NCBI GenBank assembly: GCA_951406725.2
Contig: OX597815.1
Location: 196,726,001-196,790,000, forward strand
DNA: 64,000 nt
Direction: 5' to 3'
Source: Octopus vulgaris
Taxonomy: Eukaryota
In this document: positions 9,978 to 62,769 of the stretch, piece after piece
Layout: each line of letters opens with the position of its first letter
Position numbering within the stretch: position 1 is the stretch's first letter
The notes under the pieces: model-generated
Databases searched by the model: none
Told to the model about the DNA's origin: nothing
The model's input: the letters and a program-made list of their open reading frames with translations, nothing else
Position numbers and translations under genes: made by a program

Positions 9978-10382
9978 AGGCGGCGAGCTGGCAGAAATGT
10001 TAGCACGCCGGGCGAAATGCTTAGCGGTATTTCGTCTGCCGCTACGTTCTGAGTTCAAATTCCGCAGAGGTCGACTTTGCCATTCATCCTTTCGGGGTCG
10101 ATTAAATAAGTACCAGTTACGCACTGGGGTCGATATAATCGATTTAATCCGTTTGTCTGTCCTTGTTTGTCCTCTCTGTGTTTAGCCCCTTGTGGCTAGT
10201 AAAGAAATAGGTATTTCGTCTGCCGCTACTTTTAGAATTCAAATTCCGCCGAGGTCGACTTTGCCTTTCATTCTTTTGGGGATCGATAAAATAAGTACCA
10301 GTTCAACACTGGGGTCGATGCAATCGACTCATTCTCACCTCCTCCAAACTGCCCTTGTAGCAAAAATTTGGAATAATTATTA
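9978..10382 (+). mobile_element. Meta-domain SINE dimer: a Tx1-tailed unit followed at the internal target site by the rest of a SINE with a different tail
   Basis: Head GGCGGCGAGCTGGCAGAA, core GTCGACTTTGCCTTTCATCCTTTCGGGGTCGAT..AAGTACCAG, junction AAAGAAATA|GGTATTTCGTCTGCCG near 10210. Confidence 0.85.
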
Positions 10383-11154
10383 AACTGCCTAATAACGGTA
10401 AGCAAGCCCAAACACCGAAATCCCTATCAAATGTTCATATTTAAATAATTCTATTAAAAAATTATATATCAGTATATTGCATGAAACATTAAATGTCTTA
10501 AAATATATATATGAAGAGAGGACAAATTTATAAGTCAACGGCTTATAGGAATTTCACTTTTAGGTAGGTGCAGATGATAGCACTCATTCTTTTCATGAAT
10601 TTATCTCTATGGTAAACGTATACCACTTTGTTTAATCTTCCATGAAAGACACATTAGCTAATTGTGTGAGATTCTTTAATCTTTGATTAGGGAAAATGAA
10701 TGCTTTCAATAAAAATGATATAATAATAAGTAATTTTGGGATGGTCCTTTTTTTCATTGCTAAATAAAGACACGCACTATATATTTGTTTTTCCTTCGTC
10801 TATTACTGTTCTTATTTTATCTATTTTAACTCATGTCCATTGTCCGAAAATTTTTCGTCACACATCTGTGACCTCTTCAGTAACACTTTTCCTTTTCGTG
10901 TGCGCCCTTGTTCCACTTACTCCATTCTGTTCTTCTAAGATGTTTATCTTTATGTGTGCATGCGTTTGCGTACATGTTTGAGTGAGTGTGTGTGTGCATG
11001 TGTGTATATGTGTGTATGTATATTTTTGTGTGTGTGTCCTTCTTCTTAGCTGCACTATGGCCTTCCTGTCAGCCGCATCCTCTCACCCCTTTGTGCTGCT
11101 ACTGTCCTAAGATCCAAACATTTGGTACAGTTTAGAATCAAAAAATATATTTTA

Positions 11155-13660: not shown

Positions 13661-13847
13661 CCCTTTCTATTAAAGGCACAAGGCCTGAAATTTGTGGGGG
13701 AGGGGGCTAGTCAATTATATCGCCCCTAGGGTATAACTGGTACTTATTTCACCAACACAGAAAGGATGAAAGGCAAATATAATTATAATTATATAATTCT
13801 AATTATTGGTGCTACCTTGTTCATGGCTATTATTATTATTATTATTA

Positions 13848-18771: not shown

Positions 18772-19494
18772 TGTACACTCTCTCTCTCACACACACACAC
18801 ACAAATGCACACACACTCTCTCTCTCTCACACACACACGCACCGTCGGATAAAATACCTGAAAGTAATTTTTTGTCTTATACAATTAATCTTGCCGAAAT
18901 CAATTTCGTGTTTCTTCGATTCGGTTTGAAAAAATAATATCCAAGACTTTATTGTTGATTTAATCGATTGCCCTCTTTTCTCAAAATCTATAACTGTGTT
19001 TCCATATCAGAAATCACTTCAGTAGTTTAGTGTCAGGTAACAGAAACGTTAGAGTGTTTTGTTAAAATCGCTTCTGACCTATTTCAACCGTTTTATTTTC
19101 ATTTTTTTGCCTTTCAGTTTCATCAAGGACAAATAGTAAACCGTTTAACTGCATTCATTAAAATTAAATAGAATTTCATAGTCTTTCACAGAAATAGAGA
19201 GCCATTAAGTAGGTAGGTAAATATTTTGAAAATACTGAAAGTACATTTACAATATAGTAAAAGCGTTTTTTTTTCTTTTCGCATACGCAGATGAAATACT
19301 ATATTCAGTTAATAAATTTAGTTTCCCTTCCGTATTTGTTGTTGTAGATAAAGGAGAACAGTTATTAGTTCAGTGTAGGATATTCATTTAAATGCCTAAC
19401 ATTATGCGCTCAACGTCCATCGAAGCTATATTTTGCGGTGAGCTGCGGCTATATTTTGCTATATATACTTACGGCTGTATTTTGCGGCTAAAAC

Positions 19495-20263
19495 GCGGCG
19501 AGCTGGCAGAATCGTTAGCACGCTGGCCGGAATGCTTAATCGACTTAATCCCTTTGTCTGTCCTTGTTTTTCCCCTCTATGTTTAGCCCCTTGTGGGCAA
19601 TAAAAAAATAAGAATCGTTAGCACGCCGGCCGGAATGCTTAGCAGTATTTCGGCTACCGTTACGTTCTGAGTTCAAATTCCACCGAGGTCGACTTTGCCT
19701 TTCATCCTTTCGGGGTCGATAAATTAAGTACCAGTTACACACCGGGGTTGATGTAATCGACTTAATCCGTTTGTCTGTCCTTGTTTGTCCCCTCTGTGTT
19801 TAGCCCCTTGAGGGTAGTAAAGAAATAGGTATTTCGTCTGCGGAGGCGGCGAGCTGGCAGAAAAGTTAGCACGTCGGGCGAAATGCGTAGCCGTATTTCG
19901 TCTGCCGTTATGTTGTGTGTTCAAATTCCGCCAAGGTCGACTTTGCCTTTCATCCTTTCGGGGTCGATAAATTAAGTGCCAGTTACACACTGGGGTTGAT
20001 GTAAACGACTTAATCCGTTTGTCTGTCCTTGTGTGTCCCCTCTGTGATTAGCCCCTTGTGGGTTGTAAAGAAATAGGTATTTCGTCTGCCGCTACGTTCC
20101 GTTCTGAGTTCAAATTCCGCCGAGGTTGACTTTGCCTTTCATCCTTTCGGGGTCGATAAATAACGTACCAGTTATGCAGTGGGTCGATGCAATCGACTTA
20201 ATCCCTTTGTCTATCCTTGTTTGTCCCCTCTATGCTTAACCCCTTGTGGGCAATAAAGAAATA
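19495..20263 (+). mobile_element. Nested array of Meta-domain SINEs
   Basis: Full-length copy 19842-20075 flanked by 14-bp GGTATTTCGTCTGC repeats; 5'-truncated copy 19539-19610 flanked by 31-bp repeats. Confidence 0.85.
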
Positions 20264-20594
20264 CATATTTTACATTTGTGCATTCTGAATATAATAATTA
20301 AATTAGACATTTATTTCGAAGGTTTTATCTACACAGCAAAGAATGCAAGAAGACAGAATCACATTTCTGTCGACACCATCAATACAACAGCAATAACACC
20401 AACAATATAAACACATCCCAACAATGAACATACTCTCTAACGGAAAATTCAGACATTATATAATGTACACGTCTTTTTTGTCAGATGACAGCCTGTAAAA
20501 AATATGCGCGAGATGTAACTACTGTGTCTCTGACGGCGAGCGACAACATAGATGTCGCTTCTTGACTTGGTCAGTAATAGCTGATGCTGTTGCT

Positions 20595-23531: not shown

Positions 23532-24174
23532 TTAAACATTATAAATTGTCAGAACCTAAGTCAGGTGACTAAAGTCCATGAATCACTGGAACAATTCTAA
23601 TGCAGATGATTTTCTCAGAAAATTCACCGTGTATTTTTCAAGAATTCCTTTTACTGGGGTGATGCAAGTTTGCATAGATTTCCTTATCCGCACGAAGATT
23701 GATTACCCACAATGGATTTCATAGCCAAATGTCTTAACAAATAATTATTACTTTATTGACTTAAACACTTATGATACGACGAAGGTACCTCACAACGTGC
23801 TAATAATCGAGACATAAATCGATAAATGAAGTAGTTTCTTCATGGTAAAGCCAGACGTTTTACAATATACCGTTCACATAATTAGATAAACGTAGTGGAT
23901 AATGTACTTGATGCATGATAAATCTGAAAATAAACATTAAATTTAAAGGATAGTCTTTCTTGTAACGGTTTTGATCTTATATGTATTTGATCATAGATGA
24001 ATTCGATAGTATAAACAAACAACAAACGACAATGTACAACACTAAGATACAATTAAAATCATGAAATATCAAGGCAATTTCAAAGAGAAGTCGGAAACTG
24101 AACCGAAGCAGTGCTATGTTTGTGAGAGAACTACGTTTCAAAACTTCGCTACCGTCGTAGTGGAGTGATTGATA

Positions 24175-24356
24175 TTATTTCGTCTGCGTTACGTTGTGAG
24201 TTCAAATTCCGCCGAGGTCGACTTTGCCTTTCATCCTTTCGGAGTCGATAAATTAAGTACCAGTTACGCACTGGGGTCCATGTAATCGACATAATACCTA
24301 TGTGTGTCCTTGTTTGTCCCCTCTGTGTTTAGCCCTTTGTGGGTAATAAAGAAATA
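24175..24356 (+). mobile_element. 5'-truncated Meta-domain SINE
   Basis: Begins at the internal TATTTCGTCTGC site and ends AAAGAAATA. Confidence 0.8.
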
Positions 24357-24442
24357 GGTATAACGTTTAGCCCCACATCAAAACTAAGAGAGCAGATCAA
24401 TGTTTAAACGCAATCCGGAAGTAATCTCCTAACATTTATTCC

Positions 24443-26944: not shown

Positions 26945-27460
26945 TCCTGTTTTACTTGTTTCAGTCATTTGACTGTGGCCATGCTGGAGCACCGCCTTTA
27001 GTCGAGCAAATCGACCCCAGGGCTTATTCTTTGTAAGCCTAGTACTTATTCTATCAGTCTCTTAGGCCGAACCGCTATGTTACGGGGACCTAAACACACC
27101 AGTATCGCTTGTCAAGCGATTTGGGAGGGGGAAACAAACATAGACACACAAACATATACACAGACACTTACATGCATACATACATACATACATCCATACA
27201 TACATACATACATACATACGTACATACATACATACATACATACATACACACATACATGCATACATACATACAAACATACATACATACATACATATATACG
27301 ACGGGCTTCTTTCATTTTCCGTCTACCAAATCCACTCACGAGGATTTGGTCGGCCCGAGGATATAGTAGAATGCACTTGCCCGAGGTGCCACGCAGTGGG
27401 ACTGAACCCGGAACCATGTGGTTGTTAAGCAAGCTACGTACCACACAGCCATTCCTAAGC
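26945..27460 (-). mobile_element. Microsatellite-containing SINE with expanded (TACA)n
   Basis: Family match to 15020-15450. Confidence 0.85.
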
Positions 27461-28377: not shown

Positions 28378-29700
28378 CTTAGGGATCCTGCTGTCCTTCA
28401 TTATAATAAGGTGTCCGGTCCAACGTAACCGGTTCTTGTGCACCATCACCTCAATACTCAAAATACCAGCTGTCCTCAGGACCTGTGTGTCTGGAGTTTT
28501 TAAGGTCCTGCCACCATTCAGAATGTGTCTGAGACATCTCTGATGATAGCGTTCAAGAACCTTTACATGATGTTTCTAAAGGGTTCACCTCTCACATGAT
28601 TAAAGGAACGATGTCAGTACACGTGCACGGTATACAGCAATTTTTGTTTGTCGTGTGATGCCATGCTGGGACTAGACACGAGACTGAAGAGACCGGAAGA
28701 AATCAGTTGCTCTCTGCAGCCTGAAAGATATTTCATCATCCAGGGAGCAAGAACGGCTGGGTTCGCTGCCCAGGTAGACGAACTTGACCACCACTTTCAG
28801 AATTGTTCCTTCAACGAAGATAGCTGGTTTCCACATATGAATTTCTTGGTGCTGCTAAGAACATTACAACAGTCTTGTCCAGGCTAATGTTAAATTCAAA
28901 TGCCTTGCAAGAAGCAGAAATACGATTCATAAATAGTTACGTATCATCCATTGTATGAGTGACTAAGTCACAGTCATCAGCATTAAAGAGGTCACGAATA
29001 AGAGACTGGAAAACTTTTGAATTGGCAGCAAATCTGCGCAGATTAAAGAGGCGGCCAGAAGATCGATATCTGACATATATTCCCAGAGATCTAACCTTAG
29101 CAAAAGCATGAGTAAAAGCAGCAGCAAAGTACAAAGAAAAGAGAGTTGGGGCAAGGATGTCACCCTGCTTGACACCATTCTCTACAGGGAAATTGTGAAT
29201 GGAAAGTGACCCTGGCAGAAACCAAGGCTGCAATTAAAGGACTGTGTCAAGTCCCCATTAAAGGCCTGACATATATTCCCAGAGATCTAACCTTAGCAAA
29301 AACATGAGTAAAAGCAGCAGCAAAGTACAAAGAAAAGAGAGTTGGGGCAAGTATGTCACCCTGCTTGACACCATTCTCTACAGGGAACTTGTGAATGGAA
29401 AGAGACCCCAGCAGAAACCAAGGCTGCAATTAAAGGACTGTGTCAAGTCCCCATTAAAGGCCTGTGATATGCAGGAAACTGACTGGAAAAACAATGCCTG
29501 TCATCGTCACAGATGGAGGAAGCCGGTTAAGGAGGGGGTCGTCACTTTTGAGAGAGCAGGTATTCAGCATGAAGAACTCAAGCATGCTGCTCGAAAGCTC
29601 ACGGCTGGTGTAGTGAATGGGGAAAGCTTGGTCTGCAATGTTTGCGGTCGTGTATGCTTGTCAAGAGCAAGTTTCATTAGCCACCAACGGAGCTGCAAAT
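28378..29700. pseudogene. RTE-clade LINE 3' fragment with an inverted 5' part and a 196-bp tandem duplication
   Basis: Minus strand: GVKQGDILAPTLFSLYF, LFNADDCDL, RLRWTGHLIIMKDSRIPK; plus strand: ILYRELVNGKRP...CNVCGRVCLSRASFISHQRSC, typical RTE C-terminus. Confidence 0.85.
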
Positions 29701-31584: not shown

Positions 31585-31805
31585 ACTCTTTTACTTATTT
31601 CAGTCATTTGACTGCAGCCATGCAGGAGCACCGCCTTTAGTCGAGCAAGTCGACCCCAGGACTTATTCTTTGTAAGCCTAGTACTTATTCTATCGGTATC
31701 TTTTGCCGAACCTCTAAGTTACGGGGACGTAAACACACCAGCATCGGCTGTCAAGCGATGTTGGGGGTCAAACACAGACACACGAACATATACACACACA
31801 AACAT

Positions 31806-31838
<33 letters not shown>

Positions 31839-32005
31839 CATACGACGGGCTTCTTTCAGTTTCCATCTACGAAATCCACTCACAAGGCTTTGGTCGGCCC
31901 GAGGTTATAGTAGAAGACACTTGCCCAAGATACCACGCAGTGGGACTGAACCCGGAACCATGTGGTTGGTAAGCAAGCTACTTACCACACAGCCACTCCT
32001 ACGCC
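31585..32005 (-). mobile_element. Microsatellite-containing SINE
   Basis: Family match to 15020-15450. Confidence 0.88.
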
Positions 32006-37748: not shown

Positions 37749-40700
37749 GTTCAGGCGATTACATAAAGTATTTTCTTATTGACTCGTGTACAACTTTTAT
37801 TCTCTAACTGCAATAAAAGATTTCTGAAAACGTATAACATTTTTGTCTGATTTTCTTATATTATTGATGAATCCTTGAACCAACTGCCTACGACATCAAA
37901 CAACGGAAATTCTAGAATATTTTTTGCTCTTCTAATATTTTTCTGACTAAACAAGATCCAAAGATATGATCTTTTTCTGCATTTTTTATTCGTCCATCAA
38001 CAGCAGCTCTTTCGAAAAATATTGAGACGAAAATAATACAATCTAAAACAGAAATGATGAGGAATATTCTATACTTTGAATATAATGTTGAAAAAGGCCA
38101 ACTTTTGAAATTCTCACAGATATCTGCAGGAAGTAAAATTCACTCTTCATTGTTCAGAGTTCTGTAGAATGTAATATCTTTTGTGACAAAATTAATATTT
38201 TGCATTATAAGGACCGGCAATAATTTAGATTCTTCTAATATCAACTATATCTAATGTTAGGAGAGCGCAGATGGCCAGACTGATATAGCTTCGGACAATT
38301 AATTGTATTGGCGGTTGTTCTTAAAATGCATCGTGTACAATGTTATTCTGCTTTATGTTCTAAATGTTAAATAGCCTCTGGGTGAGTGCAGTACATCTAG
38401 CTGCTTTACTGAGGTGAAATTCCGTTCGTAATCAATGAATCATACGCGTATACGTCCAACCATGTAATATATTTTTGCTGGAAAACACAATTCTTCCTAC
38501 GTAATATGCGTAAGCTTATTTCAAATCTGCATTTGCTATTCTTATTTTACGTCCAGTATTTGTGAAGTTAAATTCTAGTTACATTATGTGTCCACATTAA
38601 AATCAATACATTGTCTTGCTTTTTTACCCGGGGATATTTTCAGTTTCCATGACTTGTTGTGTGCGCACAAAAATAACTATGATGACAGTTAATTTTTACA
38701 CGACAAAGGTAGCCGTTTTCACAAACATATATTAATCAAAAACCAATTAATCAAACAGAAAACCAATTTTAAAAGACGTACCACATAACGGGGTAATTTC
38801 CGCCAACAGGTACAACAATAACATCACATACAATAGTTCCACTAAAGATTGGTCATTATGTTGTAGAAGCTGAAATACTTGTAGATTGGTCAAGTTCCTC
38901 AATACCAGAATGGAATTTTCTTCAACTAAACACCACATCTTTCTGATTCTGTCCCTCATTAGATGAATAATTCCCCATTTTACCTCAAAGAGAAATGCAT
39001 TTATTATTACTGAGTTATACCAGTACTTAGATAGAAGATGTTAGTTGAGACTGAGATCCCAAAAGTTGGAGAAATTTTATTGACTCTATTAAAGTGAGTT
39101 TTAAAACTGGATATATTGCACAATACCATTGAGAAGCCTTCAAATCTTCGAGTAGATTTTGCTTGAATTTATGAAGCACATGAAACCATCAAACTAATCG
39201 TAAGGCTCATCAAATGCAAGAATTAAATTTAGAATATCTGTGATCACCCTAAAATCTCATTGATTCCAGTTTTGCGTGCATAAATCATAAGCGCCTGTTG
39301 TATATATGGATTAGCAAGCGGGAGAGAAATCACGATGGAAAATAAACCATCCGAAACTGAATGTGTTATTGGAGAATATAAAGCACAAAACTAACTGTGG
39401 GTGACTATCTGAGAATATATAAAAGCCATCACTTCACATTAAAGCGGACCAGATAAAAACATTCGTGAAGTGTATGGATCCTCAACATAGGATTTGGATA
39501 TTGCATGAATAAATTGAATAGAGATCTCACAGATTTGTAGTTAGAAGCCGACGGTGGAACGAAATTAACATGGAAAAACTAAGTTGATAAGTATCTTTTC
39601 CTCGGAAAATATACGTTGAAATTCAAAGGAAGTGTTATGAAGAATGCCTCGGAGATTAAATTCTTAACGCCCTAATGTTGACTTCTTTCTGCCAAACTTT
39701 GGGCAGTAAAGGAAGAGCAGTTTGAGCGTCTCCCACAGAAAGTCCCATTCGAGAGAACTTAAGCCAACATATGATAGGAGATTACTGTTGATTCCTACAG
39801 AAAAAATGAACGAACTTTCGTTCAACAAGGCAAAGTGTAAAAGACTGCAAAAAAGTTTCAATTCGCAATAGGAAATGGACTTCTGTTGCAACAGCGAAAA
39901 TATTTTCTAACGAAATAAGTAAAAACTAATATTAAGCTCGTTTGATGGATGAATGGGCGTATGAGTAGTAACCCTGAACATGACACTCGACTGACTTCCC
40001 TAAGATAAGAGAAAAGAAGGACAAACCTTGTAACATTATTTCAGCATGGCTAACATAAAACATGACATAGAAACATAATACACACTCCTTATTCAACGGA
40101 AGTCGCGTTAAAAGAGGACAATGAGTTAGTCTTTGTTTACATAAAACCTGAATATGCCTGGGCAATTTTCTTATCTGATCTCAAAACTAAATTAGTGATA
40201 TAGAACACTATTGTGGTCAGAGGTGAAAAATTTTAATTTTTATCTACAGTTTAGGATCTTTAAATACAATAAAGAAAATGATATACCCAAACTACCGCAA
40301 AACACACTATTTTCACAATAAAGTGTTCAGCTTTGTACATTTAATTTCAAGACACAAATATTGCATACTCATTACACAGCTAAACCATCGGATACACTAT
40401 ACAATCACATATTAAATAACACAAATATTACGTTTATGTAACAGACACTACAAATCGCACAAGCTGTCTTGCGCATTTTCTACACACCAATAAAATATCA
40501 GAACATTTTTAACATATCAGAAACAATGAATCAAAAATCACAACAAAATGAAATTGATAATAGGTTTTAAAGAACAACAAAGCACATTCCTCAAATACAA
40601 ACATTGTACTTGGTGATGTAGCTTAATTCAACGTAGTTCTACACAGGAATGATGGGTTCTAGTTTTGGCAGTATAGCAACAACTTTAGAAAAAGTGTAAA

Positions 40701-40910
40701 TTGATTTCATCGATGCCAGAGCACGAATAGTACTTATTTTATCGAACCCCAAAATAGAAAATAGGTAGTTGACCCCAGCGAAATCTGAACAGACAATGTT
40801 GAAGGGCAGAAGATATGTCGTTAATCAGTTTCTCTTATGGTCTAACCTTTCTGTCAGCTAGCTGCCTTAATGAGGATTTTGATAACAACAACAATAATAA
40901 TAACAATAAC

Positions 40911-41182: not shown

Positions 41183-42915
41183 GTATACAAAAGCCTTCTT
41201 TCATTTTCCGTATACCAAATCCGCTCACCAGACTTTGGCTGGCCTGATTCCTAAAAATACAGAGTTGATCGAAGTGGACGTGAAGAAAATAAAATGTCGT
41301 AATTTATCAGTAGCACACTGACTGAAATCGTAATTGTAGAGAAGAGTGTCTTGGACAGTAGGTTTCCAGTTTTTATTGCAGGATGGACCAATCGTTACCC
41401 TGTAACTGAGAGTTAGCCGTTGAGTCAACTGGGAAGTGGGCAATTAAATATATTTATCATGTTATTATGAAAGCAATCTGGTAAATGGACATCATTGTGT
41501 GTGCGCAAGTGTTTATGGACTATGGAATGTTAGTGTAGCAAAGGAAGTGTTTCTCAGTCCTACGGATCAAAGGGTTTCTGACCATATATGGAGAAATAGT
41601 TGTCTTACTGCGTTGGAATTTGACATAATTAGGTTAAGAGCTTCCCTGAGAGATATAGATGATGTACAAGACGGAGTTGAAGGAAACAAAAATTGCATAA
41701 TGTTCATTTACCTGAACATTATCCAATTAAAGTCGCATATGGATTTGCAACGTTGTAAAGGTATCCAATAGATTAGTCGAGAAAGAAAAAGGCTGTAAAG
41801 AAAATTTCTCTATAGTATAGAAAAGAAAACGTTTGGTGCCAGAAAAGCATTTAAGGATATTGATAGAACTAAACTGGAAGAGATAGAGAAAGAAAGAAAT
41901 CGAATCGCTCACCGTATGAAAACAAGTATTAAATCTGAATTCAACAACTGATAAAAGCAGCTAATACATCTGTGAAAAACATTATTTATGCTTGTAAGAC
42001 ATCAAAAGTGGAATTGTGGAGTGAAAATCCTGATAGAAGAGAACACAAAGAGAAAATAAAATTATCGAGATCTGATGCAAATTTATTGGAAAACAAACCA
42101 TATATCAGGTGAAATCTCAAGGGAAATATGCTGATTTAGAAAGAAAATTTCATATAAGAACTGTGTAACAATTGCACCGGAAAGGTAGAAACAGATGATT
42201 TTGATAAAAACATCAGAGAGCAGAAGACAGTTGCATAGAGTAAGCCTATATAAAATAAATGTACATTTTTAGTGTGGATCAGAAACGGATACATGAAGAC
42301 GAGAATGGGAATGTACGCAAATAAAATCATACGACTTGCAGAAGAACGTACGAATTTCTAGTTAGAAATTTAAGTCAAACAAAAGATTCTTAGTGCTAAA
42401 CTTGAATAATGAAAGATAATTAGAGGTGAAGCAAAAATCAATAAGCAGGAAAATTGAACGTTACAAGCGTGGTGGGAAAATTATGACAGAAAATTTCCCA
42501 ATATTAAACCTGGCAAAATGCTTCACGGAATTTCGTCCATCTTTACGTTCTGAGTTCAAATGCTGTCAGTGTCGATTTTGCTTTTCAGCCCTTTGAGGTT
42601 AGACAAATAAGTACTATTTGAATACTATGGCTGATGTAATCAACTTACTCCCTTCCCTCCAAATCTGCTAGCCTTGTGAAAACGAAAAAAAGAATGGAAA
42701 CTAATATTTGCAAACTGAATAAGGAATTGTGAGAATACGCTGCCTCCATGACTGAGAGGAGAAAGAATTAATGGCTGTGGTAGAAAACATTTGGCATGAA
42801 AAGGTCATATGGACTAGTGTTTAACTGCCAGCAGACAAATCGATACCGAATTATGGTTTGATAAGAACTTGGCAATGGCCTGGATTGATAAAAAAAAAGA
42901 ATCACTATAATTCCG

Positions 42916-43143
42916 TGCGAGCTGGCAGAAACGTTAGCACGCCGGGCGAAATGTGTAGCCGTATTTCGTCTGCCGTTACGTTCTGAGTTCAAATTCCGCC
43001 GAGGTTGACTTTGCCTTTCATCCTTTCGGGGTCGATGAATTAAGTACCAGTTACGCACTGGGGTCGATGGAATCGACTTAATCCGTTTGTCTGTCCTTGT
43101 TTGTCCCCTCTGTGTTTAGCCCCTTGTGGGTAGTAAAGAAATA
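42916..43143 (+). mobile_element. Meta-domain SINE monomer with TSD
   Basis: Flanked by TATAATTCCGT direct repeats. Confidence 0.88.
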
Positions 43144-44895: not shown

Positions 44896-45737
44896 CGAAT
44901 CAGTCTATATGTTAATATCAATCTATATACTGCTGTTTCTAAACGAAATATATTTTTAAGTGTTATATAGATACGCCACAATAAGAAATCTGATGATAGA
45001 AAATCGATCTTACTGAAAAGTTGTTTAAATGTATCTTTGCACTCGCAAAATGTAAACTAAAATGTAAAGATTTTGCTTATATAGTTCATTCATGCATATT
45101 GACAAACGAACCTCTACAAGAAATTTTAACAATTATTTGAGGTTTAGCATAGAGATAAACCCATCCTAAACTACGCTTAACAAATGGGAACCCTTTCTAA
45201 TTATAAAACATAGTGGATGAGTGCAAGCTTGACTGATTGACTCCGTTATGCGCAAGATTAAATTAAACAATAATGACACGCTGTCTAGAAGTCACCCAGG
45301 GGCGGCGTACATTACAGCAATAGTGAAGAAGAAGAGCGTGTTTTCTAAAATAAAATGGATATAATGAAAACAAGCACCAAATATTCCTAACAGAAAAAAG
45401 AGAAACTTCAAATATTAGTATGAGGAAAACAAATTAAATTATTACAGCAATATAACTTCAAAAGAAAAATGGAAATCTATATTTCTGTATAGATTTCCCC
45501 TACAAGTTAAACAGTATCATAAATCAGCTCTCTAGAAATCATTCCTGCTTAGTTGCCACCGCCTCGACGTATCCTGATAATTATGTTTTGTTCTGTTTTG
45601 TTAATTCTCCATGATGTAACTAATATACTAATCAAGTTAACCCAAAAGGCACTTTAAATGCACCAAATAGTTTCTTTAATAATACCATATATTTTCCAAA
45701 ATTTGTACTTTTTACTGCATACACTTTTACATATCTT

Positions 45738-46657
45738 TTTCTTTATTGCCTACAAGGGGCTAAACATAGAGGGGACACACAAGGACAGACATAGGTATTA
45801 AGTCGATTATATCGACCCCAGTGCGTAACTGGTACTTAATTTATCGACCCCGAAAGGATGAAAGGCAAAATCGACCTCGGCGGAATTTGAACTCAGAACG
45901 TAGCGGCAGACGAAATACCTATTTCTTTACTACCCACAAGGGGCTAAACACAGAGAGGACAAACAAGGACAGACAAACGGATTAAGTCGATTATATCGAC
46001 CCCAGTGCGTAACTGGTTCTTAATTTATCGACCCCGAAAGGATGAAAGGCAAAGGCGACCTCGGCGGAATTTGAGCTCAGAACGTAACGGCAGACGTAAT
46101 ACCTATTTCTTTATTACCCACAAGGGGCTAAACACAGAGGGGACAAACAAGGACAGACATGGGTATTAAGTCGATTACATCGACCCCAGTGCGTAACTGG
46201 TACTTAATTTATCGACCCCGAAAGGATGAAAGGCAAAGGCGACCTCGGCGGAATTTGAACTCAGAACGTAGCGGCAGACGAAATACCTATTTTCTTTACT
46301 ACCCACAAGGGGCTAAACATAGAGGGGACAAACAAGGACAGACATAGGTATTAAGTCGATTACATCGACCCCAGTGCGTAACTGGTACTTAATTTATCGA
46401 CCCCGAAAGGATGAAAGGTGAAGTCGACCTCGGCGGAATTTGAACTCAGAACGTAGCGGCAGACGAAATACCTATTTTCTTTACTACCCACAAGGGGCTA
46501 AACATAGAAGGGACAAACAAGGACAGACATAGGTATTAAGTCGATTACATCGACCCCAGTGCGTAACTGGTACTTAATTTATCGACCCCGAAAGGATGAA
46601 AGGTGAAGTCGACCTCGGCGGAATTTGAACCCAGAACGTAACGGCAGACGAAATACG
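45738..46657 (-). repeat. Tandem array of five about 184-bp Meta-domain SINE units, each truncated at the same internal site
   Basis: Tails at about 45740, 45921, 46105, 46290 and 46475; junction CGGCAGACGAAATACC|TATTTCTTTA repeated. Confidence 0.92.
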
Positions 46658-46854
46658 AATTTCTTTATTGCCCACCGGGGGCCAAACATAGATATGGACA
46701 GTACAACTGATGGGATCAGTGAATCGATATGATTTTACATAAATGTGACATCAAAAATAAAATACAATACATAAAAATCGAATGGAATACACAGTACAAA
46801 AACAATACAAATGAAGCGATGATCAAGTTACGCTCCGATCCCACAAGCCCCGAT

Positions 46855-49800
46855 CTACCGCTGATACCTTTTTATTTTTCCTTTTTTTTTTTCTTCCCCT
46901 CGTCTATTCCCACGGTTCCTTGCACGCACAACACTCGTGCAACATACTTCCATCTCTTTTGGAACGTACACTCTGACAGACACCTCTTCTCCAGCCACAG
47001 TTTCCTTTTCAAATGAAAAGAAAAAAGGATCGTAAATTGTCACCAGAGATAAAGTTGCCTGTCTTAATTCCTTTTATCCTGGTCTTCCATACAGCCTCTT
47101 TTGCTATTGCTACAACCGTGAGAAAACAATTCTTACCTTCGTTCGTTAGAACTCCCGGTGGGTCAATTTTTATAATTGACTCAGTCGACAGCAGTACTCG
47201 TCCTTCGCCGGACAACAGATGTTCAGCATAAGCCCACATTTCAGTTATCTCCAGACACTGAACAATAGCGTGAGGGACGGTTTCCCTGTCCCCCCGCATC
47301 TTGGACAGGTCGGCGACTGACGTTTACCATGTCTTGCGAGCTTATCCCAAACGGGCAAGACACCTCTGTAGCATTGCCAGGTTAAGGACTTTTGGAAGTT
47401 GTCCAACGTTCTCAACCCGAATGTACGATGAAACAAGCTGTCCAGTTGAATAAATCCGAGACCTAGAGTCGACCCCAGGCCATCGTCGCATTCAGACTCT
47501 ACCAACCCACTATATAAAATCCGTGTGGAACCCCCACCGCTGGCGTTGCCCGAGCGCCGGAACAGCAAGAGGGCCTTACGGCACTCTTTATGCCACTCAC
47601 TCGACCTCGGTCTACGAGAACACCAGGCTTCCTGTTCACAAAAACTCTTGAACTCAGGGAACATTTGTCTGGCCAGCGGAGACCACACCCGTTCACTATC
47701 CAGGAGAATCCAGAGGTGCCTCAACCTCAACGCATGTCTGCGCATCATTAACCAAGGCATCCCTAAACCTCCATTTAAAGGCTTTTGACAGCAGACAGAG
47801 CGTTTCACAAGTGGCAACCTGCCCTTCCACAAAAAGCGAAAGAGCTGTCTCTCCAACCTGATCAACCACGAATCCGGACAGGGCACGACGGTCAGGCGGT
47901 AGGTAATGACCGATGCGATAAACACATTGGCCACTTCCGCCCTCCCTTTCAGGGATAGCCACCGCCAAGACCAGGTCTTGACTACTGCAGCCACCCTGCT
48001 CAATACCTCCGTCCAGTTCTTCTCTATCTGGAGGCCTGGTCCAAACCAGACTCCCAGAAACTTAACCGGTCCCTCCGTCCAGCGCCTAACAACACTGTCT
48101 GAAGGCATCGACTTGCCAACCCAGGTGCCGAGCTGCTAGGTATCGATGGTCAACCCTATCAAAAGCTTTAGACTTGTCCAAATGCACCAATGCCCCACCT
48201 TTGCCAGATTTATTACCAAACCTCTCTATGGTATAGCGAATAAGATGGAGGGTATCCTGAATGGTTCTGCCTGGGATGGCACATGTCTGTGCCTCCCCGA
48301 CTATACCATTTGCGACACGCGCCAACCTTTTTGCTAGAACCTTGGCCAAAATCTTCACTTCTGCGTTTAACAGAGTGATGGGCCTGAAATTCTCTAGAAC
48401 GTCCCCCTTGTCCGGGTCCTTTCTGACCAACGTCACTACTCCCCGGCGCACAGATCTGGGGATAAACCCATTCTGTTTCCAGTTCGTGTACACGTCAGTC
48501 AGTAGTTGCCCGAACAAGTCTGGCATACATTTATACAGCTCGTACGGAAGACCATCAAGTCCCGGTGACTTACCCGCTTTACAATCGGCCAAAGCCTCCA
48601 TCACCTCCTCAGGTGTGATTGGCCCTTCGCAAGACTCCGCATCCGACCCCGAGAGGCACGGCAGCCCAGTAAGAAAGTCCTCGATGGCTCTCCCACCACC
48701 AGGACCGCCGTCACCCCCGAACAGCTGGGCGAAATACTCCCGAAAGACCTCACACATTTTCTCGGGTTCGTTTATCAAGACACCATTTTGATTCGTCAAA
48801 GACCGAATAGAGGAACTATTTCCTTGCCGAGCTTCCACCACTCGGGCCCATCCAGCGGCTTTGATTCCTTCACTTCCCATTGCACGTAACTTAGCTCTGG
48901 TAATACTTCCCATGTGGTGGGCTTCAAGATGCTGGTTTAACTCCAGTCTTTTCACCCTCGCTTGGTCTGTATTACCAGTCCTCCAGGCTTCTTCTAGTTC
49001 CTTAACTAGACCATCTCCTATTTTACGTCCCTTCTTAGCTAAACTTATGCTAAACCTAATAGACTCATATTTGATGGCTCTTTTAGGGCGTACCACCATT
49101 TGTTATTAATGATGGTACCTGTTAATGCCCTCTGTATTAACATCTTGATCGGCTTTCTGTACTCCTCAATCGCCAAAAGGGACGTATTGAGTTTCCAGTA
49201 GCCAGATCCCTGTCTATGCAACTTATCTACCGTCAGTTTACAGGTAACCATCTTGTGGTCACTGTAGCTGACTAGAAAAAACTGTGGACACTCAACTATG
49301 GACTTATCTTTTTCTCTAATTAAAATCCTATCTAGATATGTTCTGGTAGACCCGTCACTATTTAACTACATCCACTGTGGAGTATTCGGGTGCTCCAACC
49401 TATATGGATCTGCTAGCTGAAATTGACTTAGCAGATCCCGAAAGCCTGGGTTACATTTTCTGTTCATGTTCGAGTTTGAGCCAACACAATCTGTGTGTGC
49501 TGCACATATTGTATTAAAGTCTCCTAACACTACTAGTGAATGCGACGTGGCTAGGAACTTTCCTAGGCCACGAAAATATTCAGTTTGCGGGCCAATAATG
49601 TTTGGTGCGTAAATAGCGACCAGCCTGATTGTCTTGCCACAACTGAATGTCAAGTCGAGAACGACCAGCCTGCCTTCTGGGTCAGAAAAAACCAACTTTT
49701 TCTCGGCTACCCGGTTTCTTTTTAGTAGGACCAACACCCCACCCCCACCTCCCGCCCGACTCGGAGAAACGTATTTCTCGTAGCCGTTTAGGAGGGGGAG

Positions 49801-49944
49801 CAGATCTCTTGGCCCCTTCACCCGGGTTTCCGTTGCAACAATTACATCCAAATTTCTCGACCTGATGTCATTCAGAAAGCGTCCTTGCTTCCAGCTTGAC
49901 AACAGGCCATGAACATTTAAACAACCAATGTGAATAGCCATCAC
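46855..49944 (-). pseudogene. ORF2 (APE endonuclease, reverse transcriptase, zinc finger), disrupted
   Basis: IGCLNVHGL, ATETR, LGDFN, YLDRIL, SDHKMV (APE); KSPGLDGLP, FRPITLLN, DKSKAFDRVDH (RT); CPRCG..ETVPHAIVQC; in-frame stop at 49366, frameshifts near 49080, 47290 and 47010, RT core missing at about 48130. Confidence 0.92.
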
Positions 49945-52535
49945 TTACCTGTTTAATTAGGATTGTCCGGTGGAGGGGGACCCTCCACCTTTTTTGATCC
50001 AGGGTCGGAGGTGGACGGTCTTGGGAAATAGATTTGTCAAAATCCCGTCTCACCACCGACACAGAATTATCAGGTGGAGGGGGAATCTCCACCTTTTCCT
50101 TTTCTCGCGGGATCGGAGCTGGTAATCCATGAAATATCGACTTGTTAAAATCTAATCTCAATGAAGATACAGTCTTTCTGTACTTATTTTGTAGAATTCT
50201 ATAAGTCTTATTTGAGACTTCATATATGTCGTAATTGATAAATTCCTCTGAAAGGTTATCAATTTTTTTTACAGTCTTTATGAGTTGAATGTCTCTCATG
50301 AGCTCAGTATCTTTAGTGTATACGGCTATTATGCCTTTTTCTTCTTTTTTTCTTCTGGCAGTCTTTTTTGGTCGTTGTTCTGTAGTAGTCGCCGCTCTCG
50401 GCTGGGTTGCTGGTTGTATTTTTCTTTTGTTTGTTGTTTTTTCTCATCTGTTTCTTCTTTATCTTCTTCCTCTTTGTCTTTTTTCTCTTCTTCCTCCTCT
50501 TCTTCATTTTCCTTGCAGTTCCTTCGAATGTGGCCTAATTGACCACATAAAAAACATCGAGGTTTTCGGCCTTCAACAAACACCACGAGGTTCTCCTCCC
50601 CTACCTCAATTGTCTCAGGAATTGTTTGAATTATTTTAGGGTCCGCTTGAATGAGAAGATTAATTGTTTGACCATCCCAGCGTGGGTTTTCCGTAGCGGT
50701 AGCCTGGAGGAGAGTAATTTTTTCTACCTCTTTGATTAGGACTGCCGCCAACAACCACATAGGTTCGACCTCTGGCGGGACCCTTGTAATTTTTATTCGC
50801 GACGTCCTCATCCCCATATAATAGGGGATTAACTCCACGTCGTTCGTTTTCAACGTTTCAACTGAGTTCTTGTGTGCTATTTCTTTATTGGTGAACCTTA
50901 CTTCCACCGTTCCGAATTTTTTTCCTCTTCTCAGAAATACTACGTCGCCCAATATTGGCTTTAAGCACTTTTTCTATTTTCTCTTCTGACATTCTTTCAA
51001 TTTTTCTTTTTTGTAGACAATATGTTTTGAAAATTATTGTTTTTTGCTTTTCTTCCTGTAATAACTTTTGCGGAGTTTCAATTTTCACACCGTTGTCAGT
51101 TATTTCCATCATTTTGCTGTATTTCATAATTTTGCTTTTATTCGTCGACAGTATCTGGGTTCCACCCCCAGCAGCCAACGCAAAACTTTTTTTTCCATTT
51201 TTTGGTTCTATCTGGATGCTAGGCACATCAATTATTCTCTTCGACACAATGCCTTTGTTCTCTGGCAAAGTCGGAAACTCTTCTGGTGAAAGTTCTGACG
51301 AGCTTTCAGACACATCTCCAAAAATATCAAATATATTATCCTCTCTGCTATTCCTTCTTGTAGCGGGGGAAACCCCTATTTCCTTGTCTGTATTTGGCTC
51401 CTCGCCGGACATGTATTTCCTCCTCTCAACAGGAGAAACAAGTATTTCTGCTCCAACGGTAGGCTCCGTGCTACCACAAGCACTAAGTGTTTCTTCTTTA
51501 TCTTCTTCCTCTTTGTCTTTTTTCTCTTCTTCCTCCTCTTCTTCATTTTCCTTGCAGTTCCTTCGAATGTGGCCTAATTGACCACATAAAAAACATCGAG
51601 GTTTTCGGCCTTCAACAAACACCACGAGGTTCTCCTCCCCTACCTCAATTGTCTCAGGAATTGTTTGAATTATTTTAGGGTCCGCTTGAATGAGAAGATT
51701 AATTGTTTGACCATCCCAGCGTGGGTTTTCCGTAGCGGTAGCCTGGAGGAGAGTAATTTTTTCTACCTCTTTGATTAGGACTGCCGCCAACAACCACATA
51801 GGTTCGACCTCTGGCGGGACCCTTGTAATTTTTATTCGCGACGTCCTCATCCCCATATAATAGGGGATTAACTCCACGTCGTTCGTTTTCAACGTTTCAA
51901 CTGAGTTCTTGTGTGCTATTTCTTTATTGGTGAACCTTACTTCCACCGTTCCGAATTTTTTTCCTCTTCTCAGAAATACTACGTCGCCCAATATTGGCTT
52001 TAAGCACTTTTTCTATTTTCTCTTCTGACATTCTTTCAATTTTTCTTTTTTGTAGACAATATGTTTTGAAAATTATTGTTTTTTGCTTTTCTTCCTGTAA
52101 TAACTTTTGCGGAGTTTCAATTTTCACACCGTTGTCAGTTATTTCCATCATTTTGCTGTATTTCATAATTTTGCTTTTATTCGTCGACAGTATCTGGGTT
52201 CCACCCCCAGCAGCCAACGCAAAACTTTTTTTTCCATTTTTTGGTTCTATCTGGATGCTAGGCACATCAATTATTCTCTTCGACACAATGCCTTTGTTCT
52301 CTGGCAAAGTCGGAAACTCTTCTGGTGAAAGTTCTGACGAGCTTTCAGACACATCTCCAAAAATATCAAATATATTATCCTCTCTGCTATTCCTTCTTGT
52401 AGCGGGGGAAACCCCTATTTCCTTGTCTGTATTTGGCTCCTCGCCGGACATGTATTTCCTCCTCTCAACAGGAGAAACAAGTATTTCTGCTCCAACGGTA
52501 GGCTCCGTGCTACCACAAGCACTAAGTGTTTTCAA
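49868..52535 (-). pseudogene. ORF1 (zinc-knuckle nucleic-acid-binding protein) with 1039-bp internal tandem duplication and frameshifts
   Basis: CFLCGQLGHIRRNC (CX2CX4HX4C) present twice; pieces 51924-52535, 50885-51991, 50329-50952 and 49868-50299. Confidence 0.88.
50449..52531. repeat. Apparently identical 1039-bp tandem duplication
   Basis: 50449-51492 equals 51488-52531; translated ORFs identical; 5-bp TGTTT microhomology at the junction. Confidence 0.93.
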
Positions 52536-52640
52536 TTGAAAACTCCAACAGTTAAGTTATTCAACAGTTTAACAAGAAACAACAGTTGTTAACAATATTA
52601 ACACCACGAAACAGCAATTCTTACTTCACGAACATATGTG

Positions 52641-52704
52641 CGGCAGACGAAATACGGCTACGCATTTCGCCCGGCGTGCTAACGTTTCTGCCAGCTCGCT
52701 GCCT
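52641..52704 (-). mobile_element. Head of the host Meta-domain SINE, displaced about 6 kb by the LINE insertion
   Basis: CGGCAGACGAAATACGGCTACGCATTTCGCCCGGCGTGCTAACGTTTCTGCCAGCTCGCTGCC continues the unit interrupted at 46657. Confidence 0.92.
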
Positions 52705-53439
52705 TCAGCACCAAATAGTTTCTTTAATCACACCATATATTCTCCAATATTTGTAGCTTTTACTGCATACGCTTTTACATATCTTAATAAAGAGAGGGCG
52801 ATTTTTGTAGTTAGTGTAAACATTGGCAGACTTAATGTTTAACAGTCATGCTAGAGGTCAAATATTGACAATGATTCACAGAAATATTAGTGGGATTAAG
52901 AAAAGAACTTTTTGGTAAGACTGAAAGCTTTACATCATTAATATATAAAAAAGTGAATGTCTTTTTTAATATCGTGAGATATTGCGAAGAATTCTCAAGA
53001 TTATTTTGTCGAATATTATATATAAACAAAACATACTTAGAAAAATTTCACTAAGTAGACTAAAACAAAAACAATCAGATGTCCCGTGGGGAATGACTAC
53101 TCGACATATTATAAAGCAAGGAAAACATTACAATAATTTTTATTTTGTCTTTTAAGAAAACAAAAGAATAGAAAAATTATATTAGAATGAGGAAAATCCC
53201 TATAGTACAGGGTATACCAAAAGCTCTTGCATTTTAGTAGCATATGATTTCTGTAGCACACTGAAGCAACCACTAATATTATCAAGCATGTTGTAAGAAG
53301 ACAACACAATTTTTTTTTTAAGATGGAAATTTAGAAATCATCTGCTCAAAGAACTATCGATTAAATAACCTACAGCATGAACGATAGATTCAACATTGTA
53401 AACGAGCATGTTTGGAAAAATTGGTAACGTTATGTTTTC

Positions 53440-54063
53440 AGTTTTTGGCACAGGACCAACAGTTTTCTAGAGGACGAGGAAGTCGATTAGATCTATCCCA
53501 GTGCTCAACTGGTACTCATTTGAACTCATATCATTTGAACTTAAGCCGGACGAAATGCTGCGCAGCGTTCTCACAATTCTTATTTTTTTATTGCCCACAA
53601 GAGGGCTAGACATAGAGGGGACAAACAAGGACAGACAAAGGGATTAAGTCGATTACATCGACCCCAGTGCGTAACTGGTACTTAATTTATCGATCCAGAA
53701 AGGATGAAAGGCAAAGTCGATCTCGGCGGAATTTGAACTCAGAACGTAGTGGCATACGAAATATCTATTTCTTTACTACCCACAAGGGGCTAAACACAGA
53801 GAGGACAAACAAGGACAGACAAACGGATTAAGTCGATAACACCGAATCCAGTGCGTAACTGGTATTTAATTTGTCGACCCCGAAAGGATGAAAGGCAAAG
53901 TCGACCTCGGCGGAATTTGAACTCAGAACAAACGGCAGACGAAATACGGCTACTCATTTCGCCCGGCGTGCTAACGTTTCTGCCAGCTTCGCCGCCTTCG
54001 ACAGACGAAATATCACTAAGCATTTCGCCCGGCGTTCTCACAATTCTGCTACCTCGTCGCCTT
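53440..54063 (-). mobile_element. Triple-nested Meta-domain SINEs
   Basis: Old copy split by GCGTTCTCACAATTCT repeats (53565-53580 and 54032-54047); inner full-length copy 53766-54000 flanked by CA(T/G)ACGAAATATC. Confidence 0.8.
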
Positions 54064-56091: not shown

Positions 56092-56340
56092 AGAAAATTC
56101 TATATGTTGTAAGATATTTAGGAGGTAATCGATTGGTTAAAATTGCCAAAATGCTCGGATTTTCAGACGAAATATCTTACAACATATAGAATTTTCTCAA
56201 TAAAGCCAAGAAAAAATGATGTTTTATAAACACATTCTACCAATATACGAGGTTTTAAAGTGTTTAGTTAACTAGAAATTGTGTTGAAATCTGGCAATCA
56301 AAAGGAAAAGATTCAACAATGCAAATAAAAACAGTAAAAG
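56089..56340. mobile_element. Foldback mini-element in a (TA)n tract
   Basis: TTGAGAAAATTCTATATGTTGTAAGATATTT (56089-56120) is inverted at about 56170-56200. Confidence 0.55.
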
Positions 56341-56355
56341 ACAGGATACACACAC

Positions 56356-56403
<48 letters not shown>

Positions 56404-57333
56404 CAGGTTTCTCCCAGTTTCCGTCTACCAAACTCACTCACAAGCCTGTGGCCGGCTCGAAGCTCAAGTAGAAGACACTTGCCTTAAGTGACATCCTGTG
56501 GGACTGAACCCGGAGCCATGTGGTTGGAAAGCAAGCTTCCTACCGCGCAGTCACGCCTATACAAAGGTAGTCAACAAGCTGATACAGAGTCGAACCCAGT
56601 ACCTTCCGAATTATGGCTAAACGCTTTGGACCACTAAGTCAAGCGACCAGTCACATGCGTATAGCTGTTATTAATGTCAAGATATCTCGAGAAAGAACGA
56701 AAGAGCAACAGATAAGGAAGTACAATAGACTGATTTTATAACTAAAGAGATATGACAATATAAATTCCGAAAATATCGATATACAACAAGATGGTGATGA
56801 CAGATAAATGTGAAAAGAAACCCAAAATAATCCACTTATGGCAGTCAGTAAGCTGAAATATATTATTTTATTATAGCATCAAAAGGCCAGATCTCACCCA
56901 CAATAAGCTACCTCAAACATATAAGAAGGAAATCATACTATGTACTTAGTAAACTCTCAGGAAAATCTTTAGGCAAATCAGGAACGTCATTATATCATTG
57001 TGTAGATAGGTGTATTAATGGATCAGCATTCAAGGCGGACAAGAAAAAAAAATAATGACTAAATCTGTCGTTGAGAACTAATTTATAATACACTAGAATA
57101 AATACGTATGCACAACTCACTATGAAAAATGCGAATAAATACAATGTATTATAAACTAATCCCGAACAGAACAAACTTATACAAATTGTTGGGGTCATAT
57201 ACAATCCATTAAAATGGCCCGAGTAAGAATTCGTTCTTAATGAACAGAAAACTAAAAGAAAACTCCGCTCAGCACATAAGTGGATGAGACTAATAATCGG
57301 AAAACATGGGTTTCCCCTGATAAGTTGGTTTAA

Positions 57334-59569: not shown

Positions 59570-59810
59570 CTTTTATTCTTTTATCTGTTTCAGTCATTTG
59601 TACTGCGGCCATGCTGGAGCACCGCCTTTAGTCGACCAAATCAACCCCAGGACTTATTCTTTGTAAGCCTAGTACTTATTCTATCGGTCTCTCTTGCCGA
59701 ACCGCTCAGTTACGGGGACGTAAACACACCAGCATCGGTTGTCAAGCGATGTTGGGGGGATAAACACAGACACATGAACATATACATATGCATACACACA
59801 CACACACACT

Positions 59811-59880
<70 letters not shown>

Positions 59881-60043
59881 CGACGGGCTTCTTTCAGATT
59901 CCGTCTACCAAATCTACTCACAAGGTTTTGGTCGGCCCGAGGCTATAGTAGAAGACACTTGCCCAAGGTGCCACGCAGTGGGACTGAACCCGGAGCCATG
60001 TGGTTGGTAAGCAAGCTACTTACCACACAGTCACTCCTGCGCC
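59570..60043 (-). mobile_element. Microsatellite-containing SINE
   Basis: Family match to 15020-15450. Confidence 0.88.
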
Positions 60044-60549: not shown

Positions 60550-61693
<1,144 letters not shown>

Positions 61694-62769
61694 AACAGGA
61701 TTCTGTTTCAGACCAAAATGTCTATTTCTAGCCTGGATGCTGTAAGGGCCAACATGAGTAACAAATGAGACGATAACGGTTGCTTTTGTAAAGCATTTTC
61801 TTAGAAAATACAGCACATTGCTGCGAGAATTTGTTCATGAGTTGAGATAAAGCATTCACACTATCGTAGAAAAGCTGTTCTACAGCTATGTCGCAGGTTC
61901 GGATGACCTCTACTACTCAACTCGACTCTGCTCTTCTACTCCGACTGCTACCCTCGACGTCTAGGCTGCTCCTTCTATATCTACGTATTGGGTTAGCGTT
62001 CTTCATCTCTTCATCGTCTGGGGACGTCCACACAACATCTACACACAACCCTCCAAAGGAATTCAACGTCTTAGTATTTCAAGCAAATCAGTTTGCAATC
62101 GTCAATAATTTCGGTTTTAGAGGGCATGCAAAACCACTGACACAGATATTACCCTGAGATCAAGGAAACAAAATAAAAATTTATGTTTCCTGGAACAAGT
62201 ATGATCCGCCAGCCGGCTTAGAAAATGAAAATATTGAAACACAATGGAGCTTTGGCATAACAAAATACCAGGAGGGAGTGTCATAATAGTCCGCAAGCCA
62301 TTCTTATTAACAAATTTATCATCAGAGTATGCATATATAAAGCAATGCCTAATTACTATATCGTTGTCCACAGGCGAATTCTAAAGCAAATTAATTACTT
62401 AGGCTGACTAATCTATCAGAATATAGAATAACATCATTATATCAATTAAATATATATCTCTTCCAGTTTCTAATTCAAACAACTTGTATAATATACGCCC
62501 ATTTCTCTCAGCACATTGACACAAATTATGGAATAAATATAGACACTATCTAGAAAATATCAAAGCCAGGTTCTGCGAAGAATGTTAGGGCATACTCGCA
62601 AAGCTGCTTTTAGCCATAAGCCATAATATAAAACGAGCACATATCTATATCATTCGTTCATATAATTTCCACATTGTTTATCGATTCGTTGGTTGAATTT
62701 ATGTTACTCTATTATCCTTAAATCAAGTTATCCTTCTTACATTCTTTCCGGCTGCTATGGAATAATCTC

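Follow-up and report, generated by a model that had tools for sequence, protein, structure and literature searches.

A shared insertion site of SINEs and a LINE within the SINE head in a 64-kb stretch of the Octopus vulgaris genome

The 64-kb stretch of Octopus vulgaris contig OX597815.1 analysed here (the window, to which all counts below refer unless stated otherwise) holds 25 pieces of a short interspersed element (SINE), found by BLAST with the SINE inserted at 19842-20075 as query, together with a broken copy, about 6 kb long, of an L1/Tx1-type long interspersed element (LINE; 46658-52640, minus strand). The SINE is about 231 bp long and has a tRNA-like head; its positions are numbered here from the copy that starts at 9979. 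We observe that two SINEs and the LINE are inserted at one place in the head of other SINE copies, each between direct repeats that carry bases of the particular host. We consider it likely that this place in the SINE head is a preferred site of the LINE endonuclease, that the partner SINE inserts there as well and in doing so seeds arrays, and that crossing-over adds further units.

At 19494-20263 (plus strand) a complete SINE interrupts another one. The inserted element (19842-20075) opens with the three-base leader GGA, behind which its tRNA-like head begins at 19845, and it is bracketed by two copies of GGTATTTCGTCTGC (19828-19841 and 20076-20089) that agree at all of their 14 bases, just as the original prediction had it. 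Both repeats correspond to SINE positions 48-61. The first lies behind unit B, which extends from position ~16 to its tail (19610-19827) and whose tail runs into position 48; the second is continued by the rest of the host SINE, unit D (20090-20263), with a tail of the GGGCAATAAAG type, the type closest to the LINE tail. Depending on where the leader (GGA here, GAA at the second site described below) is cut, the target-site duplication (TSD) is 14-16 bp long. Over about 165 positions downstream of the target, B, D and the inserted unit C differ pairwise by 11, 18 and 22 bases (C from B by 11, C from D by 22), which argues that the inserted unit came from elsewhere and is not a local duplicate.

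The 14-mer is internal to the SINE and hence recurs in almost every copy, so that its mere recurrence is not evidence; the evidence lies in its position after a tail and in the host-specific bases. We also considered the 14-mer as the element's own end. This is ruled out by four solo copies with exact TSDs of 11-13 bp, which terminate at AAAGAAAYA and set the SINE's own 3' end there, so the 14-mer is target DNA. These copies lie at 42917-43143 (plus strand, in unique DNA; 11 bp), 23529-23299 (12 bp), 29941-29711 (13 bp) and 11960-11743 (13 bp), and all four TSDs begin with TATA, one of them being weaker in that it sits within a TA-rich stretch. Pol III boxes in a tRNA-like head, TSDs and the lack of an ORF would mark a tRNA-derived SINE (SINE2), for which the window's SINE is a candidate. 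An automatic TSD search at outer boundaries found nothing for 5 of 10 (9979, 18417, 19494, 24176 and 54061).

The same arrangement had been predicted to recur, with a private variant in both repeats. At 54014-53751 (minus strand) the structure and the shared variant are indeed present: both repeats (54014-54000 and 53765-53751) start with GATATT, a variant confined to these two motif matches. The repeats are not identical, however, and differ at 2 of 15 bases. Here the host head (54000-54061) ends in the 5' TSD copy GATATTTCGTCTGTC, the inserted full-length SINE with its GAA leader occupies 53766-53999, and the 3' copy GATATTTCGTATGCC opens the host remainder (53581-53765), the inserted SINE and the downstream unit showing 16 differences.

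The third insertion at this site is that of the LINE. It is flanked 5' by a SINE head of positions 1-63 (52641-52703, minus strand) and 3' by SINE sequence from position 48, where a TSD copy (46657-46642) opens a row of five SINE units of 184-185 bp, each running from position 48 to the tail (45737-46657, minus strand). The TSD, CGTATTTCGTCTGCCG, is identical at 16 of 16 bases between this copy and the one in which the head ends (52656-52641), and begins with the C of its host, against G at most other junctions. The SINE insertions had been placed at a LINE target site, and the window's LINE does sit at the same position. A template-switch chimera of head and LINE was considered and rejected, since the TSD and the SINE remainder lie 3' of the LINE. 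In target-primed reverse transcription, the extent of the TSD marks the first and the second nick. The direct repeats at the three insertions (14/14, 13/15 with the shared GA, and 16/16) point to events of this kind, and their bases follow the host: GG at the first structure, GA on both sides at the second site and CG on both sides at the LINE.

A fourth case is found at 9979-10385 (plus strand), where a SINE continues at position 48 into a unit whose tail is of another kind (10210-10385). We read it as a seamless insertion into a related SINE, as the different tail is not readily given by crossing-over within one family. Three insertions with visible 5' junctions at one site (two SINEs, one LINE), this fourth one, the host-specific TSD bases on both sides and neighbours 11-22 bases apart all support the site-preferential retrotransposition that had been proposed. 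The companion claim that arrays do not grow by unequal crossing-over only also stands, because insertion and local duplication both operate. All pairs among 17 units differ by 8-22 bases, with the exception of units 1 and 2 of the array behind the LINE (46657-46473 and 46472-46288), which show 2 differences and have private variants in common (other pairs in this array: 8-15), so that they represent a local duplication rather than two insertions. Could DNA-level events then account for everything, one old dimer junction having been spread by unequal crossing-over and gene conversion? The closeness of these two units fits such a scheme, and the SINE arrays of squamates and bivalves have been put down to unequal recombination (PMC10702118, PMC11481361). 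The scheme would leave unexplained the LINE that sits at the same base with its TSD of 16 bp, the host-specific TSD bases, the intact heads behind the TSD and the 11-22 differences between neighbours, and we regard it as very improbable.

The junction motif of a tail running into position 48 occurs eight times in the window, against 0.00 expected (100 shuffles). Eighteen SINE tails were counted: eight run into position 48, two into position 14-15 and eight into unique DNA, and none of the 18 runs into any other SINE position; the single LINE tail (1/1) likewise runs into position 48. The score cut-off of this census was 26, and one position-15 junction that scored 22 was accepted from a 16-bp match to its own head. 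Two of the SINE junctions at position 48 are visible, with an intact second head behind the TSD, and six are seamless. A rough model of uniform insertion, good for the order of magnitude only given that real insertion is not uniform, would expect about 0.008 position-48 events among 20 insertions, against four with signs of insertion. Families have been called target-specific when more than 20% of their flanks are of one sequence type (Kojima 2015, PMC4494074). Here 10 of 18 SINE tails run into SINE sequence, some of them through duplication, and the LINE does so in 1/1 cases in the window and in contigs from two of four runs.

What kind of element is the LINE? Its first open reading frame (ORF1) holds a zinc knuckle (Pfam zf-CCHC), and ORF2 an apurinic/apyrimidinic (AP)-type endonuclease (Exo_endo_phos) and a reverse transcriptase (RT; RVT_1). 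ORF2 is broken up among several frames and, compared with the related protein P0185 (in which zf-RVT was found), its RT region is about 120 aa short. Another relative, P0001, matches human L1 ORF2p with an E of 2.7e-50 and R2 with 3.6e-24, and there is no CR1, RTE or Tx1 entry among its matches. With ORF1 and ORF2, an AP endonuclease, an RT nearer to L1 than to R2 and a zinc motif, the LINE belongs by its sequence features to the L1 group (L1/Tx1) of non-LTR (long terminal repeat) retrotransposons. Architecture and behaviour fit the Tx1 branch, of which it is a candidate only; the zinc-knuckle ORF1 and a weak ZCCHC3-type lead (0.89) are consistent with Tx1. The closest named homologues of the LINE proteins come from Argonauta hians, Octopus sinensis and O. 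bimaculoides, no named Tx1 reference being among the homologues, and the atlas searches yielded no clade name. Other relatives deserve a mention in their own right. A 53%-identical relative of the C-terminus (P0168, P0182) is filed under a Herbaspirillum metagenome-assembled genome on a 1775-bp contig, and is probably animal DNA in a bacterial bin. Fish homologues from Coilia grayii (P0080, P0081, P0113, P0166 and P0167) have neighbouring locus numbers, and in P0166 a single ORF2 lies between two ORF1 regions of the ZCCHC3 type; these features suggest a site-specific element that forms tandem arrays.

Aligned with a SINE tail, the last 34 bases of the LINE agree at 29 and score 43, whereas 2000 shuffles reach 30 at most. 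Among the tail types the LINE end comes closest to GGGCAATAAAG, which outer units carry, and it has no match to the alternative tail at 10210-10385. A SINE-like tail is also present within LINE-family contigs from two public runs (X1 and X7, below), and the shared 3' end suggests that SINE and LINE are a partner pair. The composite of head, LINE and array is itself flanked by a 77-bp duplication (downstream copy 45660-45736, minus strand; upstream copy ~52708-52784), far longer than the 11-16-bp TSDs elsewhere and perhaps reflecting a distant second nick at the oldest insertion. Its copies differ at 7 of 77 bases; the LINE copy, compared with record 4 of X1 over 773 bases, has 9 differing letters and 5 gaps. 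Going by these letters, the outer duplication looks older than the LINE copy. Within the ORF1 region of the LINE, 51488-52531 and 50449-51492 form an exact 1044-bp match with a period of 1039, which either is a tandem duplication of very recent date or has arisen as an artefact of the assembly.

Among the public runs listed, 20 from 13 studies contain part of the LINE stretch. Contigs from four of them, X1 and X7 of low depth and X2 and X8 deep, were aligned to 46626-47400, and the results given here refer to the contigs listed. Record 4 of X1 (1358 bp, depth 9.84) covers LINE body and SINE-like tail and continues for 30 bases of the target, and record 18 of X7 (298 bp, depth 22.6), a LINE-family contig, extends 12 bases into it. 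The window's LINE copy differs from all of the aligned depth of the four runs at three positions and from more than 99% of it at two more; with letters unlike those of the window's copy, the X1 and X7 contigs probably come from another locus. SINE 31-mers reach a depth of 220-600 in X1, which suggests that coverage is far below one-fold and that the LINE contig was built from many copies, its depth being no copy number. Short tail-target junction contigs with 2-3 differences have depths of 148 and 48 in X1 and 49.9 in X7, and are probably SINE junctions. Judged from these sequences, the target seems to follow a substantial share of LINE copies. SINE patterns had no matches in viral, metagenome and prokaryote contigs, and among LINE relatives with flanks the corresponding collections gave 282, 166 and 72 pattern matches, none of them confirmed.

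Several observations weigh against a preferred site used by both elements. Unique DNA follows 8 of the 18 SINE tails, so the preference of the SINE for the site is not strict, and one pair of array units owes its existence to duplication rather than insertion. The window holds a single LINE copy (n=1). All of the units running into position 48 (8/8) carry tail types other than GGGCAATAAAG, and another related LINE may have moved them. In the first structure, positions 48-62 of unit B differ from those of D at 3 bases, which leaves the B|D junction without a matching TSD; to explain the mismatch, either the join must lie further upstream or mutations must have followed. At least 3 + 9 contigs of X8 and at least 1 + 2 of X7 have loose ends shortly beyond the end of the LINE, which may represent tails of SINEs or LINE ends located elsewhere; by their letters, those of X7 lead into SINE position ~16 and into a short spacer with another head. 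Finally, among the contigs listed, none from X2 or X8 spans the junction of LINE and target.

What could be the mechanism that brings both elements to one site? We propose that the octopod tRNA-like SINE is mobilised by an L1/Tx1-type LINE whose 3' end the SINE mimics. The AP-type endonuclease would nick the bottom strand at the 47/48 boundary, and the top-strand nick would fall 14-16 bases further, between an A-box-like motif (positions 11-25) and a B-box-like one (73-85), so named for their likeness to the RNA polymerase III (Pol III) box consensus; ARAGORN finds no tRNA genes, and an Rfam scan of 19400-20400 no tRNA match. A LINE inserted at this point would part the SINE head from its body and leave a 16-bp TSD. 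For a SINE, normal joining of the cDNA end would keep its head visible, as at 19842-20075 and 53766-53999. More often, the upstream DNA, which would end in a 3' overhang equal to positions 48-62, would anneal to the SINE cDNA, which holds the complement, and prime second-strand synthesis, giving a seamless transition from head to body. The annealed join would produce head and body, then TSD and host remainder, that is, exactly one extra unit of 184 bp (from position 48 to the tail). LINE cDNA has no complement to the overhang, and its junction would always be visible. The annealing step would account for six seamless against two visible SINE junctions, some of the seamless units being duplications. 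Every new unit would bring a fresh copy of the site, and arrays would go on drawing insertions, with unequal crossing-over between units contributing further ones.

Transcription may add to this process. The reference SINE and the second site have no run of four T (T4), and the five-unit array has one; without such a run, transcripts of arrays could extend into the unit that follows and base-pair with the nicked primer, just as read-through of SINE or LINE RNA into GGUAUUUCG would allow. The same feature lends itself to an account by hitchhiking, in which a single ancestral LINE inserted into a SINE and has since passed on the downstream unit with its copies as a 3' transduction, and in which multimeric SINE RNAs, made by Pol III with no T4 stop in the consensus, are copied whole. 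On this account only a few events would lie behind the position-48 junctions, the rest being inherited, and the contigs cannot separate such inheritance from independent insertions. A SINE copy at ~24172-24362, which begins near position 50 in unique DNA and then shows GGTAT, with no TSD found, is in keeping with this account, being possibly a retrocopy of an array transcript. Inherited junctions are hard to reconcile with TSD bases that vary by site and match each host (GG, GA, CG), with a head of positions 1-63 directly 5' of the LINE and an exact TSD, with the different tail on one downstream unit, or with an outer 77-bp duplication more diverged than the LINE. We therefore hold hitchhiking to be unlikely.

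A second hot spot is apparent at 19609/19610 and 53581/53580, where GGGCAATAAAAAAATA-type tails run into head position ~15. The duplications are host-specific (~30 bp and ~16 bp, respectively), and a similar junction occurs at an X7 loose end. At the first of these places a SINE head (1-45) is joined to a SINE 3' piece (~158-231; 19494-19609, plus strand). We read this as a 5'-truncated insertion at position ~15 with ~30 bp of the head duplicated, the order of events being our reconstruction; its GGCCGGAATG variant is common to the sequence from 19610 onward. At the second, position 15 of a degraded and older SINE (53580-53480) follows on the tail of the host remainder, and AGAATTGTGAGAACGC of the head at 54048-54033 is found again in this degraded copy. 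Either microhomology (AAGAA/CAGAA) or another LINE may be behind the hot spot.

The TATA start of the solo TSDs, and the loose pattern NN-TAWDK that they have in common with the self-site, suggest that the machinery also uses similar sites in unique DNA. Carried further, this would mean that any TA-rich NN-TAWDK site is nicked, that pairing of RNA or cDNA with the target favours the SINE site, and that the LINE does not target SINEs as such. By eye, the solo TSDs TA-TATAT, TA-TAATG, TA-TATTT and TA-TAATT and the self-site GG-TATTT all fit the pattern, and a second hot spot at position 15, met again at the X7 loose end, agrees with a loose choice of sites. Yet other matches to the pattern within the SINE go unused, the LINE shares no homology with the head and still uses the same base, and LINE-family contigs extend into the target in two runs. 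A merely loose preference appears quite unlikely to us, and we retain that of a preferred site in the SINE head. A hairpin as the recognition signal was dropped: RNA folds put the nick site at the boundary of the loop and the 3' arm of a stem at 32-59 (z -1.6 to -2.7), but folding of the DNA does no better than shuffled sequence (z -0.27 to -1.36). A conserved stem-loop in the tail was unsupported (z 0.55 in the LINE, -1.75 in one SINE).

What would such an arrangement mean for the two elements? We would give even chances to the wider idea that the LINE family is site-specific, with most of its copies using the site and the promoter region of the SINE it mobilises as its main niche, and that a self-feeding loop drives the octopus SINE arrays. 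If so, the SINE would multiply safe landing sites for its own helper: more SINE copies would mean more harmless places to land, and every self-insertion another one. An inserted LINE would sever the A box from the B box, and a SINE inserted into its own kind would keep the promoter and add a target. In the usual view SINEs are parasites of LINEs and nothing else; in the window, the LINE may also have the SINE as its target, and a feedback loop would be closed. In O. vulgaris, SINEs make up 11.6% of the genome and 13 L1-Tx1 families are counted as recently active (PMC13282606). From the window, a concrete account can be given of how partial-unit SINE arrays may arise; an abundant octopod SINE gains a candidate LINE partner, and AP-endonuclease retrotransposons gain a possible new natural target.

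Other repeats in the window include older SINE copies at 10210-10385, 13665-13780, 42505-42690 and 40660-40869, with the same head or body, a different tail and no match to the LINE, possibly a sister family with another partner. Just upstream of the outer head of the first structure, 19420-19493 holds three degenerate repeats with TATTTTG, which may be remnants of earlier target duplications. Another interspersed family of ~275 bp, often beside microsatellites, is represented at 27182-27456, 31726-32000, 56284-56558, 59764-60038 and 61423-61697. Two tandem copies of a 196-bp unit (96% match) at 29070-29464 lie in an apparent fragment of another retroelement, with the solo SINE 29941-29711 nearby.

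The octopus tRNA-derived SINEs OR1 and OR2 were reportedly described by Ohshima and Okada in 1994. The SINE of the window may be one of them. The likeness consists in a tRNA-like head and abundance in octopods; the window SINE has a shared body with alternative tails. OR1 and OR2 have been cited as CORE-SINEs (PMC4824008, PMC4758252), and octopus papers list L1-Tx1 elements and tRNA-CORE SINEs, with no target data in the portions available (PMC13282606, PMC8967140, PMC9115989). Our literature search, outside of which lay most subscription papers, Repbase and Dfam, did not turn up any LINE whose target is its own partner SINE; the SINE-head target may already be noted in Repbase, Dfam or older papers.

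Like those of the window, the SINE arrays known from squamates (PMC10702118) and bivalves (PMC11481361) consist of a single complete head, partial units in repetition and a single complete tail; they are ascribed mainly to unequal recombination, and in the excerpts of both papers no LINE target site is proposed. Site preference is known to seed tandems of transposable elements through double insertion, with recombination able to expand the dimers (McGurk and Barbash, 10.1101/158386); in the cases treated there both copies hit one external site, whereas in the window the site is internal to the element, at a fixed position. The target-preferring Tx1 clade includes Tx1L in Tx1D, Keno in U2 small nuclear RNA genes and Kibi and Koshi in microsatellites, and has further targets in Harbinger and LTR elements (PMC4494074). 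The window LINE, a candidate Tx1, resembles this clade in its two ORFs, AP-type endonuclease, TSD of ~15 bp and multicopy target, and differs in that none of the targets listed in the available part of that source is a SINE or the LINE's own partner SINE.

The closest parallel is offered by crocodilians, in which Tx1-Mar LINEs and SINEU SINEs have hot spots in common within a Mariner transposon (Kojima 2015, PMC4494074). Tandem copies of SINEU-3 sandwich a TSD and are read as sequential insertions, the site preference of SINEU ranges from 13% to 90% of copies, and co-transcription with the target is cited as strengthening specificity (PMC4494074). By analogy, the window's LINE-SINE pair would work like the Tx1-Mar/SINEU system, with the LINE a Tx1 candidate by its sequence features: in both, a Tx1 LINE and a SINE would use one preferred site inside a repeat, and two hot spots are seen. 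For SINEU-1, no LINE with the same 3' end is reported in the available text (PMC4494074), and the window LINE has the SINE's tail. That Tx1 elements target other repeats and that SINEs follow them was already known; what appears new here is a LINE-SINE pair with a probable target in the SINE's own head. The target of SINEU-3 and Tx1-Mar is a third element, the DNA transposon Mariner-N4_AMi, whereas that of the window pair would be the head of the SINE itself, and with a LINE that carries the SINE tail each insertion would make both a partial-unit array and a new target.
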